NCBI RefSeq assembly: GCF_003334815.1
Contig: NZ_QOWO01000008.1
Strand: one strand, 5' to 3'
DNA: 64,000 bases
From: Escherichia coli
GTDB lineage: Bacteria; Pseudomonadota; Gammaproteobacteria; Enterobacterales; Enterobacteriaceae
Positions 33,622 through 51,229 of this stretch are shown in pieces; position 1 is the stretch's first letter; each line of letters begins with the position of its first letter. The notes below the pieces were generated by a model. It searched no databases. It worked only from the letters and a program-made list of their open reading frames with translations, and was not told the DNA's origin. A program made the translations under genes and the position numbers.

Positions 33622-34233
33622 TCATAACGCGGCGCGTAGGGCTTCGCGAATTAAAGTTTCACTGCTGGCGTCAGGGCGAGCGATTTTGCTCACCATGCGG
33701 CTTGCTTCTTGTGGTTTATAGCCCAGCGCCACCAGCGCGGCAACCGCTTCTTGTTCAGCATCGTCGGTCGCCGGGCTGGCAGGAGACGTGAGTACCAGGT
33801 CGGCGGCTGGCGTAAAGAGATCGCCATGCAAACCTTTAAATCGGTCTTTCATTTCAACAATCAAGCGTTCGGCGGTTTTTTTGCCAATACCCGGCAGTTT
33901 CACCAGTGCCCCCACTTCTTCACGCTCAACGGCATTAACGAACTGCTGCGCTGACATTCCGGAGAGGATCGCCAGCGCCAACTTCGGGCCGACGCCGTTG
34001 GTTTTGATCAACTCTTTGAACAATGTGCGCTCTTGTTTATTGTTAAAACCGTACAGCAGTTGCGCGTCTTCACGCACCACAAAGTGGGTGAAAACGATCG
34101 CTTCCTGACCCGCTTCAGGGAGTTCATAAAAACAGGTCATCGGCATATGCACTTCATAGCCTACGCCGCCCACTTCAATTAACACCAGCGGGGGTTGTTT
34201 TTCAATGATGATGCCTCTGAGTCTGCCTATCAC
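33622..34233 (-). CDS. ruvA: Holliday junction DNA-binding protein RuvA, 203 aa
   Basis: Full-length [66 protein letters not shown]... Confidence 0.96.
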
Positions 34234-34284
34234 ATGACGCTCCTGCGTAATGAATCAAAGATAATGCTGTATGATAAAAAAATG

Positions 34285-34300
34285 CTGGATAGATATCCAG
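34285..34300 (-). promoter_or_regulatory. LexA (SOS) box of ruvAB promoter
   Basis: CTGGATAGATATCCAG, a perfect palindrome about 50-65 bp upstream of ruvA; matches the remembered ruvAB SOS box (CTGG variant). Confidence 0.75.
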
Positions 34301-34507
34301 CGAAGGATGAAGAAAACTTGCGAGGTGTCTCGATGAACTGAAAAATGGCACAGTATAATTTATTCTACAGGTTATATTGGAAGCAAATATTTTAATATTA
34401 CATATTCAGTGAAGAAATGCGTAATAAAAATATACATTGCGCCTCCTGAAAAAATAAATTTTTTATGCTATTACGTATATTTGTATCTATTTCAATGGAA
34501 TGACAAC

Positions 34508-35110
34508 GTGAATATTAATTACCCTGCTGAATATGAAATTGGAGATATCGTCTTTACATGTATAGGTGCTGCCTTATTTGGTCAAATATCAGCTGCATCA
34601 AATTGCTGGAGTAATCACGTCGGGATCATTATCGGTCATAACGGTGAAGACTTCCTGGTTGCAGAAAGCCGGGTTCCCCTTTCAACCATCACCACGCTAT
34701 CTCGTTTTATTAAACGTTCGTCTAATCAACGCTATGCTATAAAGCGATTAGACGCTGGGCTGACAGAACGACAAAAACAACGAATTGTTGAACAGGTTCC
34801 CTCCCGGCTACGCAAACTTTACCACACCGGTTTTAAATACGAATCTTCGCGCCAGTTCTGTTCAAAATTTGTTTTTGATATTTATAAAGAAGCGCTATGT
34901 ATTCCGGTGGGTGAAATAGAGACGTTTGGAGAATTGTTAAATAGCAATCCGAATGCAAAACTCACTTTCTGGAAATTCTGGTTCCTGGGTTCTATTCCGT
35001 GGGAGCGTAAAACCGTCACGCCAGCCAGTTTGTGGCATCATCCGGGTTTGGTGTTGATTCATGCGGAGGGAGTGGAAACGCCTCAGCCGGAACTGACCGA
35101 GGCGGTATAA
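34508..35110 (+). CDS. yebB: Uncharacterised protein YebB (DUF830 / permuted papain-like fold family), about 200 aa; start uncertain
   Basis: ORF track 34409..35110 (233 aa, starts on GTG); the translation has no Met codon, so the start must be GTG or TTG; GTG at 34508 gives a 200-aa product [18 protein letters not shown]... consistent with my memory of the K-12 annotation. Confidence 0.65.
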
Positions 35111-35111
35111 C

Positions 35112-35633
35112 TTAACGCAGTCGCCCTCTCGCCAGGTTCAGCCGCGATTCGCTCATCTGCATCGCATTCTGACTAACGTGGCAGTGGGTGATAGCAATCG
35201 CCAGCGCATCGGCGGCATCCGCCTGTGGATTAGCGGGCAGTTTCAGCAAGGTGCGGACCATATGCTGCACCTGGCTTTTTTCGGCACTGCCAATACCTAC
35301 CACCGTTTGCTTTACCTGACGTGCCGCGTATTCAAATACTGGCAACTCCTGATTCACCGCCGCCACAATCGCCACGCCGCGCGCCTGGCCCAGTTTCAGG
35401 GCTGAGTCAGCGTTCTTTGCCATAAAGACTTGTTCAATGGCGAAATAATCAGGCTGGAACTGGGTGATGATTTCCGTCACGCCCGCATAGATGAGTTTCA
35501 GACGAGACGGTAAATCATCCACTTTGGTGCGGATGCATCCGCTACCCAGGTAGGACAGTTGCCTACCTACCTGGCGGATGACGCCGTAGCCGGTCACGCG
35601 CGAACCCGGATCAATGCCGAGAATAATAGCCAT
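35112..35633 (-). CDS. ruvC: Holliday junction resolvase RuvC, 173 aa
   Basis: Known start [18 protein letters not shown] (RNase H-like fold) at ATG 35631-35633. Confidence 0.95.
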
Positions 35634-45288: not shown

Positions 45289-46389
45289 TCACTGTTTCTC
45301 GGTAATATCTTTGGCGTTGTACTGGAAATACCGCGTTAAAATGTCCAGTTCGTTTTCGCTCATGCTGGTTCGTGCCCCCATTCCTTTGGCAATGGACGGC
45401 CACGCATTGACGGTGTAATGGTCGGCGGCAATAGGGGCATGACAACCAGCGCAATAGGTATCGTCAAGTTTTTCAGCGTATTGCCATAGCGGTTTACGGT
45501 CCGCTAATGCGGGATCGGTAAGCGCACCCTGTAAAGACGCCTGACGCCATTGATTGCCGTATTCGTCAGCCTGCCATTCCCCGTTTACAGTGAGCGCCTT
45601 GATACCTTCTTCACTTAATGTGGCTAGCGCCAGCCGTTGACCTGCCGCCAGGTAGAGCGTGTTTTCACTGCCCTGCATTTGATAACCCTGCAACAGAACG
45701 ATCGGCTGTTTGCCACTGGCATCAACGACGGTGAGATCGGTTCCAGGATTCACGGTAGCCAGCTCGCCTATGTGAGAAGTTTTGAAAGGATAAATATGTG
45801 CGCCATTAGTAACTGAAGTAGCGGCCTGACTTTCCAGCTCATGCGCCGCGTTGTCATCCATTTTTATTTCTGGCGGAAAATGGGCAATGCCTTTATGACA
45901 ATCGATACAGGTTTCGCTGTCCTTTTGTGCTTTGTTATGCATTTTCTGCGCAGATTCACTTTGCGAGGCAATATCCATGGCATCAAAAGAATGGCAACTA
46001 CGGCACGTTGCAGAGTCAGTGGCTTTTAATTCTTTCCATACTGTTTCGGCCATTTCCTGGCGATGAGCTTCGAACTTATCGTCACTGTCTATTTTGCCGC
46101 TAACAAATTCATGATAAATATCTTTAGATGCCTTTAATTTAGCAAATAAATAATCCATCCCTGACTTTGGAATATGGCAATCGGCACATTCCGCACGTAT
46201 CCCTTTCTGGTTCGAAAAGTGGACAGTTCCCTGATATTCCTCAAAAGGTTTACTCATCGAGTGGCAGGAAAGGCAAAATGCTGTATCCGACGTTTTATGT
46301 AAGGCTTTTTGCGCCAGCAATAACCCGCCGCCACCAACCACAACCGCTATCAGCAAAAACAATAACCCAATGCGTTTTTTCCCTCGCAT
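45289..46389 (-). CDS. torY: Pentahaem c-type cytochrome TorY (NapC/NirT family), 366 aa
   Basis: Full-length ORF with N-terminal TM segment and five CxxCH haem motifs (CLSCH, CADCH, CRSCH, CIDCH, CAGCH). Confidence 0.93.
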
Positions 46390-46696
46390 AGATTCCTCTA
46401 ATTAAATTACTGGACACCGAAATCATTGTATAATTAAATATACAACGAATTAACCGCTTGCATAATTAGGCACAACACTGCCTGAAACAATCGATAAAGA
46501 ATATGATTTATTACAATGTAATCATTAATTGCTAAGGAATAACCCAGTTGCTATTTAGAATATATATTTATCAGTTTTAGTAATTTAAATCCCATAATTA
46601 ATGTGAATATATACAATATTTTTAGCACAACGCTATGCGCACTGTCACCCGCTCAACAGATCACGGTTATCGTTCGTTTTTTATACTGTTCAGGGA

Positions 46697-47532
<836 letters not shown>

Positions 47533-48318: not shown

Positions 48319-50052
48319 GTGAATATTCAGGCTCTTCTCTCAGAAAAAGTCCGTCAGGCCATGATTGCGGCAGGCGCGCCTGCGGATTGCGAACCGCAGG
48401 TTCGTCAGTCAGCAAAAGTTCAGTTCGGCGACTATCAGGCTAACGGCATGATGGCAGTTGCTAAAAAACTGGGTATGGCACCGCGACAATTAGCAGAGCA
48501 GGTGCTGACTCATCTGGATCTTAACGGTATCGCCAGCAAAGTTGAGATCGCCGGTCCAGGCTTTATCAACATTTTCCTTGATCCGGCATTCCTGGCTGAA
48601 CATGTTCAGCAGGCGCTGGCGTCCGATCGTCTCGGTGTTGCTACGCCAGAAAAACAGACCATTGTGGTTGACTACTCTGCGCCAAACGTGGCGAAAGAGA
48701 TGCATGTCGGTCACCTGCGCTCTACCATTATTGGTGACGCAGCAGTGCGTACTCTGGAGTTCCTCGGTCACAAAGTGATTCGCGCAAACCACGTCGGCGA
48801 CTGGGGCACTCAGTTCGGTATGCTGATTGCATGGCTGGAAAAGCAGCAGCAGGAAAACGCCGGTGAAATGGAGCTGGCTGACCTTGAAGGTTTCTACCGC
48901 GATGCGAAAAAGCATTACGATGAAGATGAAGAGTTCGCCGAGCGCGCACGTAACTACGTGGTAAAACTGCAAAGCGGTGACGAATATTTCCGCGAGATGT
49001 GGCGCAAACTGGTCGACATCACCATGACGCAGAACCAGATCACCTACGATCGTCTCAACGTGACGCTGACCCGTGATGACGTGATGGGCGAAAGCCTCTA
49101 CAACCCGATGCTGCCAGGAATTGTGGCGGATCTCAAAGCCAAAGGTCTGGCAGTAGAAAGCGAAGGGGCGACCGTCGTATTCCTTGATGAGTTTAAAAAC
49201 AAGGAAGGCGAACCGATGGGCGTGATCATTCAGAAGAAAGATGGCGGCTATCTCTACACCACCACTGATATCGCCTGTGCGAAATATCGTTATGAAACAC
49301 TGCATGCCGATCGCGTGCTGTATTACATCGACTCCCGTCAGCATCAACACCTGATGCAGGCATGGGCGATCGTCCGTAAAGCAGGCTATGTACCGGAATC
49401 CGTACCGCTGGAACACCACATGTTCGGCATGATGCTGGGTAAAGACGGCAAACCGTTCAAAACCCGCGCGGGTGGTACAGTGAAACTGGCCGATCTGCTG
49501 GATGAAGCCCTGGAACGTGCACGCCGTCTGGTGGCAGAAAAGAACCCGGATATGCCAGCCGACGAGCTGGAAAAACTGGCTAACGCGGTTGGTATTGGTG
49601 CGGTGAAATATGCGGATCTCTCCAAAAACCGCACCACGGACTACATCTTCGACTGGGACAACATGCTGGCGTTTGAGGGTAATACCGCGCCATACATGCA
49701 GTATGCATACACGCGTGTATTGTCCGTGTTCCGTAAAGCAGAAATTGACGAAGAGCAACTGGCTGCAGCTCCGGTTATCATCCGTGAAGATCGTGAAGCG
49801 CAACTGGCAGCTCGCCTGCTGCAGTTTGAAGAAACCCTCACCGTGGTTGCCCGTGAAGGCACGCCGCATGTAATGTGTGCTTACCTGTACGATCTGGCCG
49901 GTCTGTTCTCTGGCTTCTACGAGCACTGCCCGATCCTCAGCGCAGAAAACGAAGAAGTGCGTAACAGCCGTCTAAAACTGGCACAACTGACGGCGAAGAC
50001 GCTGAAGCTGGGTCTGGATACGCTGGGTATTGAGACTGTAGAGCGTATGTAA
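48319..50052 (+). CDS. argS: Arginine--tRNA ligase, 577 aa
   Basis: Full-length [55 protein letters not shown]...; class I HIGH-type motif in [16 protein letters not shown]. Confidence 0.96.
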
Positions 50053-50073
50053 TCGATTTTTCGTGAGAGTGAA

Positions 50074-50108
50074 GCCTGATCAGGGTTAGCCGATCAGGCT
50101 TTTTTATT
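50074..50108 (+). terminator. Rho-independent terminator of argS
   Basis: GCCTGATC-agggttagcc-GATCAGGC followed by TTTTTTATT. Confidence 0.8.
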
Positions 50109-50228
50109 GCCATCTAAATGTATTCTGAAAATGGACATGCCATTGTTTTCTCACTGTTGGATAAGAGGCCAGAAGCGTAATATCCGGCCCCAGGGAAACG
50201 ATAACGGTTGAATTTAAGGAATACCGCA

Positions 50229-50717
50229 GTGTTTAAATTTCTTGTATTAACATTAGGCATTATCTCTTGCCAGGCTTACGCAGAAGATACGGTTATAGTA
50301 AACGACCATGACATTTCAGCCATCAAAGATTGTTGGCAAAAAAATTCAGATGATGATACTGACGTTAACGTGATCAAATCATGCCTGCGACAAGAATACA
50401 ATCTCGTCGATGCGCAATTAAATAAAGCCTATGGTGAAGCTTATCGTTATATAGAACAAGTGCCACGCACAGGTGTAAAAAAACCTGATACCGAACAACT
50501 TAACTTGCTTAAAAAATCACAGCGAGCCTGGCTGGATTTTAGGGACAAAGAATGTGAATTAATCCTTTCAAATGAGGACGTTCAGGATTTAAGTGACCCT
50601 TATTCTGAATCAGAATGGCTCTCATGTATGATCATACAGACCAATACGCGAACTCGCCAGTTGCAGCTATACCGTAACTCTGAAGATTTTTATCCAAGCC
50701 CTTTGACAAGAGGATAA
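50229..50717 (+). CDS. yecT: Exported protein YecT (DUF1311 / LprI-like family), about 162 aa; start uncertain
   Basis: ORF track 50208..50717 starts on TTG; in-frame GTG at 50229 gives MFKFLVLTLGIISCQAYA... (signal peptide), consistent with my memory of the K-12 product length. Confidence 0.65.
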   Translation: MFKFLVLTLGIISCQAYAEDTVIVNDHDISAIKDCWQKNSDDDTDVNVIKSCLRQEYNLVDAQLNKAYGEAYRYIEQVPRTGVKKPDTEQLNLLKKSQRAWLDFRDKECELILSNEDVQDLSDPYSESEWLSCMIIQTNTRTRQLQLYRNSEDFYPSPLTRG

Positions 50718-50836
50718 TTCACATCTTTTTGGCATGTTTTGTTGCAAGCTATTCCTGATAAATAATTGCAACAAGACATCGAGCCTTTTTCACTGAGTTA
50801 TTAAACATACTCGCGAGCGCGTAATTTTTTTGTCCT

Positions 50837-51229
50837 TCAGCGATAATTCACAATCACTTCATTACGTTGTACCTTTAGCGGTGGAATTAACCGCCCACCG
50901 CCTGGCACTTCCCAGATAAATCGCAACGGTTCTGCTGCCGCTATACCGGAAAAGGCCACGGTGGTTCCGCTCTGCCCCTCTAATTCCACACAACGAGATT
51001 GCGAACACAAGCGAACCCGCAGTCCTGAAGGTGTCGGGCCGATAAGCTGATAACGCCACGCTACCAGCGTCATCAATCCTGAAGCAGGTTGTCGCGTAGA
51101 AAGAGGCGCAGACGACATCGACTCACCGCGATGATTTAGCGTAATTCCTACACTACTTGCCTGCCACATCCCCTCCCCGGCGGCTTGCACCAGCAGCGGA
51201 AACAATAATATTGCTAATAAGGTTCTCAT
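50837..51229 (-). CDS. flhE: Flagellar protein FlhE, 130 aa
   Basis: Full-length ORF MRTLLAILLFPLLVQAAGEGMWQASSVGITLNHRGES...; last gene of flhBAE. Confidence 0.9.
   Translation of the reverse strand: MRTLLAILLFPLLVQAAGEGMWQASSVGITLNHRGESMSSAPLSTRQPASGLMTLVAWRYQLIGPTPSGLRVRLCSQSRCVELEGQSGTTVAFSGIAAAEPLRFIWEVPGGGRLIPPLKVQRNEVIVNYR

Follow-up and report, generated by a model that had tools for sequence, protein, structure and literature searches.

yebB, encoding a predicted permuted papain-like enzyme, in a variable AT-rich islet at the ruv locus of Escherichia coli

The ruvA and ruvC genes of Escherichia coli are separated by an islet that holds the gene yebB, and the account that we consider likely as a whole is that yebB encodes a permuted papain-like, acyl-directed enzyme, in an islet that was inserted at the ruv locus and thereafter exchanged. 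The analysis concerns a 64-kb stretch of E. coli DNA (contig NZ_QOWO01000008.1), referred to throughout as the window. The identity and the family of yebB were already known, and the first-pass annotation of this DNA, which drew attention to the gene, read correctly a feature that is real and ordinary. What is added here is the placement of the start codon at GTG 34508 by a comparative argument, the description of the ruvA-ruvC spacer as a variable islet with a precise insertion point beside the ruvAB operator and with evidence of allele replacement, and the observation that minimal cargo alone has been retained in E. coli. The features of the region are as follows.

33622-34233, minus strand: ruvA, the conserved left flank
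34271-34299, minus strand: ruvAB promoter-like site, TGGATA-17-TATCAT, found by consensus scan and overlapping the LexA box
34285-34300, no strand assigned: LexA-box palindrome CTGGATAGATATCCAG of the ruvAB promoter, found by pattern match; border of the islet on the ruvA side
34305-35110, no strand assigned: the islet, an AT-rich stretch of variable content bounded by the ruvAB operator and the stop codon of ruvC, here holding only yobI and yebB
34372-34437, minus strand: yobI, a 21-codon small-protein gene (RefSeq, translation, NCBIfam NF038179)
34409-34507, plus strand: open, non-coding 5' extension of the yebB frame (GTG 34409, TTG 34481), comprising promoter region and leader, antisense to yobI
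34446-34474, plus strand: putative sigma-70 promoter of yebB, CTGAAA-17-TATTAC (prediction; hexamers from PMC3946193)
34497-34500, plus strand: GGAA, a ribosome-binding-like motif upstream of GTG 34508
34508-35110, plus strand: yebB coding sequence, 200 codons and stop, with a GTG start (RefSeq, NF008547, Pfam, orthologue starts, dN/dS)
35112-35633, minus strand: ruvC, the conserved right flank

The yebB gene and its start codon

The gene is an annotated one in E. coli: the RefSeq annotation of the identical sequence gives a product of 200 residues starting at GTG 34508, and the coding sequence is 100% identical to that of strain MG1655p. The product scores 404.7 bits against the NCBIfam YebB equivalog NF008547 (cutoff 227), with residues 1-199 covered, and matches Pfam PF05708 (Peptidase_C92, formerly DUF830) with E = 2.2e-45 over model positions 3-165 of 166; these matches, together with a predicted fold close to that of YiiX (PDB 2IF6), agree with the initial assignment to the DUF830 / permuted papain-like family. 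It was likewise correctly noted that a plus-strand gene splits the ruv genes, the open reading frame (34409-35110) having ruvA on one side and ruvC on the other. yebB and ruvC are convergent, with their stop codons 1 nt apart, and this tight junction is shared with Salmonella, Citrobacter, Kluyvera and Pseudocitrobacter faecalis. yebB was present in 5426/5426 complete E. coli genomes and is a core gene, fixed in the species. A literature search for yebB found no functional study of the enterobacterial gene; the sole phenotype found is the long lag phase of one transposon mutant (PMC5996734).

The first-pass annotation had described a frame devoid of ATG codons, initiated at GTG 34409 or GTG 34508. 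The frame is open from 34337, just after the stop TGA 34334, and indeed contains no ATG up to its own stop at 35108-35110; it offers GTG 34409, TTG 34481 and GTG 34508 as alternative starts. All orthologues start at the codon homologous to GTG 34508, which is ATG in Superficieibacter, Citrobacter, Kluyvera georgiana, Klebsiella and the Budviciaceae, GTG in Escherichia and P. vendiensis, and TTG in K. sichuanensis, and E. albertii carries in-frame TAA TAA immediately upstream of the homologous GTG. On the comparative evidence of these start codons and of the E. albertii stops, translation of yebB starts at GTG 34508, which narrows the earlier choice to one codon. The GGAA motif upstream of it has a GGA-containing counterpart, as read by eye, at roughly the same distance from the start in 15/15 ruv-linked loci and in most other orthologues.

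A product of 233 residues from GTG 34409, or of 209 residues from TTG 34481, would be permitted by the open frame, GTG and TTG being legitimate bacterial starts, but we hold such a product to be extremely improbable. The 33 extra codons are unconserved even inside Escherichia (homology to E. albertii and Escherichia sp. E1V33 returns no more than about 25 nt ahead of the GTG), the E. albertii stops directly precede the homologous codon, and the orthologues as well as the Pfam and NCBIfam profiles all begin at the 34508 position. Moreover, the extension overlaps yobI on the opposite strand, with GTG 34409 lying inside yobI; no ribosome-binding motif was seen by eye before 34409 or 34481; and the promoter hexamers listed for yebB in a genomic SELEX study, CTGAAA and TATTAC (PMC3946193), lie downstream of 34409. 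The long frame was rejected on the grounds of the yobI overlap, the lack of conservation and the E. albertii stops. The putative promoter formed by these hexamers, which would place the transcription start of yebB at about 34481, was not reported by a strict consensus scan.

Two further features of the frame were considered and set aside. A mini-uORF, ATG ACA ACG TGA (34500-34511), overlaps GTG 34508 as GTGA in an arrangement resembling translational coupling, and is treated as chance because it is unconserved in E. albertii or E1V33. The absence of methionine has a probability of P = 0.004 for 199 residues at the methionine frequency of the window. However, the orthologues of E. albertii, Salmonella, Citrobacter, Klebsiella and Pseudocitrobacter contain internal methionines, and a second gene of the window, yobA (124 aa), is also methionine-free, so that the idea of a meaningful trait was rejected; the methionine-free state of YebB looks like an unconserved product of chance.

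A variable interval beside the ruvAB operator

Related taxa have no such islet at the corresponding position. The two ruv genes are adjacent in Xenorhabdus, Yersinia ruckeri, Edwardsiella and Erwinia, with ruvC-ruvA gaps of 129, 142, 98 and 33 nt, respectively, and the LexA box follows the ruvC stop codon by 6-52 nt. The placement of yebB between the ruv genes is confined to some Enterobacteriaceae and is not seen in four other families of the Enterobacterales; homologues with 65-74% identity in Proteus, Providencia and the Budviciaceae are found at other loci. Overall, the family motifs were matched in at least 99 of 100,044 species genomes, a very patchy distribution that is to be read as a lower bound, the genome scan having used two peptide motifs with the best 80 loci kept.

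The occupants of the site are themselves diverse. K. oxytoca carries an orphan gene there and no yebB, Dickeya a NicO transporter, and extra orphan genes occur in the interval in E. albertii, Escherichia E1V33, Citrobacter, Superficieibacter, Pseudocitrobacter and Salmonella, so that the interval in sister taxa contains one to three more orphan genes than in E. coli. The E. coli islet is the minimal version, consisting of yobI and yebB. It had been described as a single-gene islet, which is right as to yebB but missed yobI on the minus strand, a gene that scores 59.3 bits against NCBIfam NF038179 (cutoff 33). Whether yobI or the E. coli spacer is a relic of the orphan genes of about 225 residues was checked by tblastn, which gave no match, and no Rfam family was matched in the islet.

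On the ruvA side the homology to E. albertii and E1V33 stops 5-15 nt past the LexA box, whose distance to the start of ruvA is 52-55 nt across 15 loci. On the minus strand the same palindrome forms a hairpin followed by a U7 run (34301..34284), detected as terminator-like by a scan for such structures, with a calculated RNA fold of -10.6 kcal/mol (z = -5.7). LexA control of yebB was predicted in a network-inference study (PMC2689187) from expression data and a high-scoring site in the shared spacer, which contains two CTG-N10-CAG motifs, at 34285-34300 and 34338-34353. Membership of yebB in the SOS (LexA) regulon, with divergent control from the ruvAB operator, nevertheless strikes us as improbable. 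While the distance of the box from ruvA is fixed (15/15 loci), that from yebB ranges from 200 to 1700 nt, other genes separate the two in most genera, as yobI does in E. coli, and neither the SCPM strain nor other genera have the second motif. An operator at yebB's own promoter and conserved with yebB was not found among the 15 loci, and the operator geometry gives no support for LexA control of the gene.

Composition, allele exchange and origin of the islet

The impression by eye that the islet is more AT-rich than its neighbours was confirmed by windowed GC, GC3 and codon usage. For the 200 codons of yebB the GC is 0.441 and the GC3 0.398, as against 0.52-0.56 and 0.50-0.63 in znuB, ruvB, ruvA, ruvC, yebC, nudB and aspS, and the ruvA-yebB spacer has a GC of 0.31. 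Only one of the 56 gene-like ORFs in the window is more AT-rich than yebB (z(GC3) = -2.2), whose codon-usage score is z = -1.7 to -2.2. The 806-bp islet (34305-35110) has a GC of 0.403, matched or undercut by only 1.25% of windows of the same size, and the GC minimum of the whole 64 kb for 806-bp windows, 0.378, falls at 34171-34976. By these three measures (GC3, codon score and lowest-GC stretch) the composition departs from the host norm. Across the ruv-linked orthologues the GC gap to the flanks varies from -0.016 to -0.15, and a single old transfer followed by amelioration would not predict so uneven a spread. The homologues at other loci in Proteus, Providencia and the Budviciaceae have a GC equal to that of their flanks.

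Judged from a neighbour-joining tree calculated without bootstrap or reconciliation and from pairwise identities, the divergence of yebB is discordant with that of the flanking core genes. P. vendiensis and P. faecalis share 0.93 identity in core genes and 0.69 in yebB; within Kluyvera the values are 0.89 for the flanks and 0.74 for yebB, and between E. coli and Escherichia E1V33 they are 0.93 and 0.81, the latter pair having a dS of 1.02 in yebB compared with 0.42 in ruvA and 0.24 in ruvC. Conversely, unusually similar yebB alleles occur between genera, in Citrobacter FP75, Salmonella and K. georgiana; for Citrobacter FP75 and Salmonella the yebB identity (0.853) equals or exceeds that of the core (0.845), whereas yebB usually lies about 0.10 below the core.

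Signatures of mobility were not found. No flanking direct repeats were seen at the islet, only two short inverted pairs at chance level, and it contains no integrase and no tRNA gene. No yebB match occurred in 50,697 phage records, and the 15 matches in a plasmid collection were all chromosome- or chromid-sized and non-mobilizable, none being a genuine plasmid copy. The islet resembles the small enterobacterial islets found at conserved intergenic hot spots in its atypical GC, fixed site, patchy presence, orphan cargo and flank-mediated allele exchange; it differs from them in lacking an integrase, tRNA gene and direct repeats, and in that its gene is fixed in E. coli.

We suggest that an islet of about 0.8 kb would have entered the genome of an organism ancestral to some of the Enterobacteriaceae. 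It would have inserted precisely between the stop codon of ruvC and the hairpin of the LexA operator before ruvA, splitting the ancestrally contiguous block aspS-nudB-yebC-ruvC-ruvA-ruvB. The same site would later have gained, lost and exchanged cargo, in the form of orphan membrane proteins and different yebB alleles, probably by homologous recombination via the highly conserved ruv flanks. We infer both the direction and the mechanism of the original transfer. The first-pass annotation had spoken of an old insertion into the ruv locus: the insertion is supported by the atypical composition and by the absence of yebB from the site in other families of the Enterobacterales, but its age is only part of the history, alleles having also been exchanged later.

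Since the YebB tree roughly tracks family taxonomy (Budviciaceae, Morganellaceae, Enterobacteriaceae), the original event could also be the intragenomic relocation of a vertically inherited gene. Horizontal transfer would then not be required at all: an old Enterobacterales yebB would have moved to the ruv locus, and its AT-richness would reflect weak expression and codon selection, fast evolution and AT-biased mutation. The missing mobility signatures, the status of core gene in E. coli (5426/5426 genomes) and a dN that is 5-10 times that of ruvA and ruvC are all compatible with such a history. We regard it as unlikely in view of the within-genus discordance in Pseudocitrobacter, Kluyvera and E1V33, the alikeness of some alleles between genera, the unrelated cargo at the site in Dickeya and K. 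oxytoca, the patchy distribution, and a GC3 (0.40) well under that of the other genes of the window. Far less probable still is that yebB is on its way to becoming a pseudogene, the functionless and decaying remainder of an islet that was once larger, even though some E. coli strains have an IS1 insertion within it, the copies in a few genomes are truncated or frameshifted, and E. coli no longer has the remaining genes of the islet. The dN/dS of 0.03-0.125 over all comparisons indicates purifying selection, the catalytic tetrad is invariant in 42 homologues, at least 80% of the gene length is covered in 5417/5426 E. coli genomes, and the fold is predicted with confidence. Insertion at the ruv locus followed by exchange thus remains the reading that we prefer.

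The predicted enzyme and its relatives

By sequence and predicted structure YebB is a YaeF/YiiX-like, circularly permuted NlpC/P60 (papain-like) enzyme. Its sequence matches PDB 2IF6 (YiiX) with E = 1.5e-17, and in a Foldseek search the AlphaFold model (pLDDT 90.4) matched 2IF6 with a TM of 0.81-0.90 and 3KW0 with a TM of about 0.6, with no further significant matches; the predicted fold is accordingly papain-like and agrees with that of solved family members. The permutation is seen in His37 (NHVG) preceding Cys118 (RQFCS), both of which align to YiiX motifs. His37, Glu53, Tyr105 and Cys118 are invariant in the 42 homologues, with identity down to 40%, and correspond to the Cys/His/polar triad and the additional Tyr, with roles assigned by homology to BcPPNE (C154/H49/E64/Y127) and YiiX (C128/Y115) (PMC3142127). 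In this scheme Cys118 would be the nucleophile, His37 would activate it, Glu53 would orient His37, and Tyr105 would position the scissile carbonyl. The N-terminus, read by eye, is acidic and devoid of a signal-peptide-like n-region, and the protein is probably cytoplasmic.

The catalytic chemistry and the substrate class are suggested by analogy. The substrate of YebB is most likely lipid-like, a fatty-acyl amide or ester whose acyl group would be released by hydrolysis or transferred, in line with the proposal for its paralogue YiiX, and a hydrophobic S1 pocket with lipid-directed amidase or acyl-transferase activity may be presumed from the published work on that family (PMC3142127). YiiX (NCBIfam NF007458) shares with YebB the PF05708 domain, the permuted order with His before Cys, and the motifs H-x-G, A/F-E-S/A, Y-x-x-x-F and RQ(F/Y)CS. 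The two are nevertheless only 26-27% identical, and the YiiX equivalog gives YebB a score of 78 bits, short of its cutoff of 216, which makes YebB a separate equivalog. It begins about 15 positions later than the YiiX profile and has a Trp-rich, highly conserved stretch, FWxxWFxGxIPWxRxTVTP (residues 154-172), that is much weaker in YiiX; YiiX was co-crystallised with a fatty acid (PMC3142127), and nothing comparable is reported for YebB.

Among more distant relatives, BcPPNE of Bacillus cereus (PDB 3KW0) is a cytoplasmic permuted papain-like enzyme with a Cys/His/Glu triad and Tyr, proposed to be an amidase for the lipid-amino acid bond (PMC3142127), and matches the YebB model with a larger deviation (Foldseek E = 1e-6, TM about 0.6, 16% identity, rmsd about 4 A). 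The permuted catalytic core is also shared with LRAT / HRASLS (H-Rev107), LnsA of S. aureus and the T6SS toxin Tox-Act1; lipid-directed permuted NlpC/P60 enzymes of the LRAT/HRASLS type form an acyl-thioester on Cys and act on lipid substrates (PMC7387801, PMC12994826). These are, however, other families of the superfamily, for which no sequence-level match to YebB was found, and unlike them YebB has no partner gene, secretion-system context or immunity-like neighbour. Clustering of the ORFs within 4 kb of the best 80 homologues gave only synteny at the level of genus or family, with no conserved operon partner, PADLOC applied to YebB and the islet orphans returned nothing beyond noise for a link to defence systems, and the orphan genes had no NCBIfam match.

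A bolder scenario, which we find doubtful, is that the Enterobacterales have a recurrent exchange hot spot where the ruvC stop codon meets the LexA hairpin of ruvAB, that YebB and the orphan membrane proteins, as fast-evolving cargo, form a functional module, and that YebB is a fatty-acyl amidase or acyl-transferase of the cytoplasm acting on one particular lipid substrate. If so, the module could serve, for example, in envelope-lipid or lipoprotein remodelling, or in inter-bacterial or phage conflict, and its transcription could be tied either to that of ruvAB, which is under SOS control, or to read-through from ruvC.

As an observation, yebB is of little consequence: the gene has long been annotated, a curated NCBIfam equivalog exists, and the structure of the paralogue YiiX has been solved. 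The sequence observation alone adds no testability to the main question that the gene poses, which is the substrate of YebB, a conserved and apparently cytoplasmic permuted papain-like protein under purifying selection.

The islet between ruvA and ruvC

The gene order in the window, znuB, ruvB, ruvA, yobI, yebB, ruvC, yebC, nudB, aspS, is that of the E. coli chromosome, and the yebB coding sequence is 100% identical to that of strain MG1655p. A first-pass annotation had described yebB as an AT-rich single-gene islet that splits the ruv genes, carries a reading frame devoid of ATG and suggests an old horizontal insertion. Frame reading (34334-35110) bears out the split and the ATG-free frame, which extends from an in-frame TGA at 34334 through the 3' end. 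The islet does contain yebB, but it is not strictly single-gene, since yobI lies in the ruvA-yebB spacer, antisense to the 5' extension of the yebB frame. The elements of the locus are as follows.

about 34305-35110: E. coli islet, 806 bp, GC 0.403
34284-34301, minus strand: hairpin at the ruvAB LexA operator, G(G)CUGGAUAU..AUCCAGC(C), then U6-U7
34338-34353: second CTG-N10-CAG motif, CTGAAAAATGGCACAG, between the ruvAB operator and the yobI 3' end
34372-34437, minus strand: yobI, 21-codon small-protein gene (NCBIfam stress_YobI, 59 bits vs cutoff 33)
34409 to stop 35108-35110, plus strand: open frame of yebB from GTG, by frame reading
34508-35110, plus strand: yebB coding sequence as annotated in RefSeq, 200 aa

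The AT-richness suspected by eye is real: the 200-codon version of yebB has GC 0.441 and GC3 0.398 against 0.52-0.56 and 0.50-0.63 in seven neighbouring genes, the ruvA-yebB spacer has GC 0.31, and the minimum for 806-bp stretches across the 64 kb falls at 34171-34976 (GC 0.378). Only one of the 56 gene-like ORFs in the window is more AT-rich than yebB (z(GC3) = -2.2), whose codon usage is also atypical (z = -1.7 to -2.2). Two further low-GC stretches lie at 49871-51057 and 45701-47227; a 169-aa ORF (50208-50717, plus strand; GC 0.389, GC3 0.343) exceeds every other gene in the window in AT content and has only a sub-threshold match to the UmoC family (36 bits vs cutoff 120).

Genomes lacking yebB at this site were located via RuvC homologues. 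In Xenorhabdus, Yersinia ruckeri, Edwardsiella tarda and Erwinia the block aspS-nudB-yebC-ruvC-ruvA-ruvB is contiguous, with ruvC-ruvA gaps of only 129, 142, 98 and 33 nt, respectively, and the ruvAB LexA box (CTGGATAT..ATCCAG) and hairpin stand 6-52 nt past the ruvC stop. The site thus lacks yebB in these other Enterobacterales and the composition of yebB differs from that of its neighbours, both of which support an insertion into the ruv locus. The insertion point is precise: between E. coli, E. albertii and Escherichia sp. E1V33, homology ends 5-15 nt beyond the LexA box. At the other border the yebB and ruvC stops are convergent with 1 nt between them (35108-35114), and an equally tight junction in Salmonella, Citrobacter, Kluyvera and Pseudocitrobacter faecalis argues for one founding event for this junction. 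A window scan found no terminator-like site between or near the two stops, so each transcript must run antisense into the other gene, and transcriptional interference between yebB and ruvC is possible.

A motif-based scan of one genome per species (100,044 species) returned at least 99 loci with relatives, and tblastn with the flanking proteins of the window divided these into two groups by synteny. Among the best 80 of the 99, yebB lies between ruvA and ruvC in Enterobacteriaceae only (Escherichia, Superficieibacter, one Citrobacter, Pseudocitrobacter, Kluyvera, one Enterobacter, Klebsiella spallanzanii and an uncultured genome); the copy of Salmonella enterica is also ruv-linked. Homologues in Proteus, Providencia, Budvicia, Leminorella, Limnobaculum and Pragia occupy other loci with unrelated neighbours, as do all more distant homologues, and some Citrobacter and Salmonella diarizonae carry a second type of copy away from ruv. 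GC of the ruv-linked copies is below that of their flanks in every case, by 0.016 to 0.15; that of the Morganellaceae homologue equals its own flanks. Amphritea has two tandem YebB-like genes (4375-4893 and 5001-5522 in one genome locus, L069; 4335-4847 and 5001-5486 in another, L080), whose products are 39-42% identical to E. coli YebB.

The founding event could also have been a relocation within the genome under a vertical history, and the roughly taxonomic YebB tree at family level fits this, as would the absence of mobility signatures at the islet, where no repeats, tRNA gene, or plasmid or phage copies were found; it leaves the later discordances between yebB and its flanks unexplained, and we consider it unlikely, though deserving some weight. 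One network study predicted SOS control of yebB (PMC2689187). The operator geometry does not favour this: the box is tied to ruvA, at 52-55 nt from its start in 15/15 ruv-linked loci, and lies 200-1700 nt from yebB, which makes SOS control distinctly improbable. The second CTG-N10-CAG motif is shared by E. coli and Escherichia sp. MOD1; strain SCPM and other genera lack it.

Read on the ruvC strand, the operator hairpin recurs in four genomes without the islet (L084:4528-4545, L086:3573-3592, L088:3548-3567, L089:3528-3547). Across these and the window its folding energy ranges from -10.6 to -18.4 kcal/mol (z = -3.0 to -5.7). The element seems to serve two ends, terminating yebC-ruvC transcription and acting as the ruvAB operator. 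The E. coli islet puts about 800 nt between ruvC and this hairpin, which would now serve yobI too. In the divergent E. coli strain at locus L004 the yobI region aligns with a 7-nt gap and many substitutions, and yobI may not be intact there.

Start codon and protein of yebB

The in-frame candidates for a non-ATG start are GTG 34409, which falls within yobI on the opposite strand, TTG 34481 and GTG 34508. The last is the RefSeq start, and its position is shared by 17 orthologues from Escherichia to Providencia and Budvicia, with GTG in Escherichia and P. vendiensis, TTG in K. sichuanensis, and ATG in Superficieibacter, Citrobacter, Kluyvera georgiana, Klebsiella, Enterobacter sp., P. faecalis and Budviciaceae. 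A GGA-containing, ribosome-binding-like motif precedes it at 15/15 ruv-linked loci and in most other orthologues (distances read by eye). A non-ATG start is thus confirmed, and the comparative evidence supports GTG 34508. A four-codon mini-ORF overlapping this GTG (ATGACAACGTGA) is not conserved and was dismissed as chance.

That the longer ORF is the true product is scarcely credible, given the orthologue starts. In E. albertii and E1V33 the sequence becomes homologous to E. coli again no farther than about 25 nt upstream of the GTG, and in E. albertii an in-frame TAA TAA immediately upstream makes a longer product impossible. The predicted promoter hexamers from a genomic SELEX study (CTGAAA-17-TATTAC; PMC3946193) map to 34446-34474, downstream of GTG 34409, leaving a predicted leader of roughly 25 nt before 34508. 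A pseudogene is just as hard to believe: pairwise dN/dS of 0.03-0.125 indicates purifying selection, and hence a functional gene, the catalytic residues are invariant, and yebB is found in all 5426 complete E. coli genomes, covered over at least 80% of its length in 5417 and less in nine, with identities mostly of 95.5-100%. It is fixed in E. coli, with IS1A interrupting it in a few strains (e.g., NZ_CP025842.1 and NZ_OZ547461.1; matches H1/H41 and H25).

The proposed DUF830, permuted papain-like assignment holds: YebB matches Pfam PF05708 (Peptidase_C92, formerly DUF830; E = 2e-45) and the NCBIfam equivalog "YebB family permuted papain-like enzyme" (404.7 bits vs cutoff 227), whereas it reaches only 78 bits against the YiiX equivalog (cutoff 216) and begins roughly 15 positions into the YiiX profile. 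E. coli YiiX (2IF6) is the nearest solved structure by sequence (E = 1.5e-17), and an AlphaFold model from 42 homologues (mean pLDDT 90.4) matches it at TM 0.81-0.90 and BcPPNE of B. cereus (3KW0) at about 0.6; the structure search gave no other significant match. The permuted NlpC/P60 branch uses Cys/His/Glu plus Tyr; a fatty acid was found in YiiX and lysine in BcPPNE, and the activity proposed was that of an amidase cleaving a bond between lipid and amino acid (Xu et al., 2011; PMC3142127). The equivalents in YebB, His37, Glu53, Tyr105 and Cys118, align with the YiiX motifs and are invariant in the 42 homologues, down to 40% identity. We infer that YebB would hydrolyse or transfer the acyl group of a lipid-type amide or ester through a thioester at Cys118. 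The N-terminus is acidic without a basic n-region, which points to a cytoplasmic location, and an almost invariant, family-specific Trp-rich segment (FWxxWFxGxIPWxRxTVTP, residues 154-172) may be a hydrophobic or membrane-facing element. A methionine-free protein of 199 residues has P = 0.004 at the window's internal Met frequency of 2.75%, unusual for a single gene and expected a few times per proteome; yobA (CopC-domain protein, 124 aa; 12852-13226, minus strand) is the only other gene in the window without internal Met. Internal Met does occur in the orthologues from E. albertii, Salmonella, Citrobacter, Klebsiella and Pseudocitrobacter, and we attach no biological meaning to its absence here.

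Variable cargo and probable allele exchange at the ruv site

The ruvA-yebB spacer varies within Escherichia (275 nt with yobI in E. coli, 1090 in E. albertii, 1766 in E1V33). In E. albertii, E1V33, Citrobacter, Superficieibacter and K. oxytoca this interval holds predicted membrane orphans of about 225 aa from two unrelated families, with within-family identities of 30-64%.

Family one: L003:4006-4692, L042:3368-4054, L006:4102-4797, all minus strand
Family two: L005:3905-4591, L010:3551-4246, L066:4203-5012, L006:3319-3999 and L090:2600-3274, minus strand; L082:4813-5475, plus strand

Islets elsewhere also hold a 274-349-aa orphan, a 331-aa protein and a 293-aa lipoprotein-like protein. NCBIfam and PADLOC gave no assignment for the islet orphans, nor NCBIfam for a 224-aa Salmonella orphan in the same position. 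Klebsiella oxytoca-type genomes have one orphan at the site and no yebB, and in Dickeya the ruvC-ruvA interval holds a NicO-family nickel/cobalt transporter gene (L087:3777-4808), unrelated cargo that took up the site independently.

In DNA identity yebB normally trails the mean of ruvA, ruvB, ruvC and yebC by about 0.10. Exceptionally, its identity is 0.69 against a flanking mean of 0.93 between P. vendiensis and P. faecalis, 0.74 against 0.89 between K. georgiana and K. sichuanensis, and 0.81 against 0.93 between E. coli and E1V33 (dS 1.02 for yebB, 0.42 for ruvA, 0.24 for ruvC); between Citrobacter FP75 and Salmonella enterica it is 0.853, at or above the mean of 0.845. A neighbour-joining tree places E1V33 with P. 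vendiensis and FP75 with K. georgiana; as it carries no support values, it is only indicative of later allele replacement, which would have proceeded by recombination through the conserved ruv flanks.

Among publications mentioning the gene name we found no functional study of enterobacterial yebB; the sole phenotype is a long lag phase in one transposon mutant (PMC5996734). RefSeq and NCBIfam already record yebB, the family it belongs to, the annotated start and the placement between the ruv operons. An exchange hot spot with a functional lipid, envelope or conflict module, possibly coupled to ruv transcription, is a speculative and rather improbable extension of these data. To the existing record, the comparative picture of the ruv islet makes a modest addition rather than a discovery.
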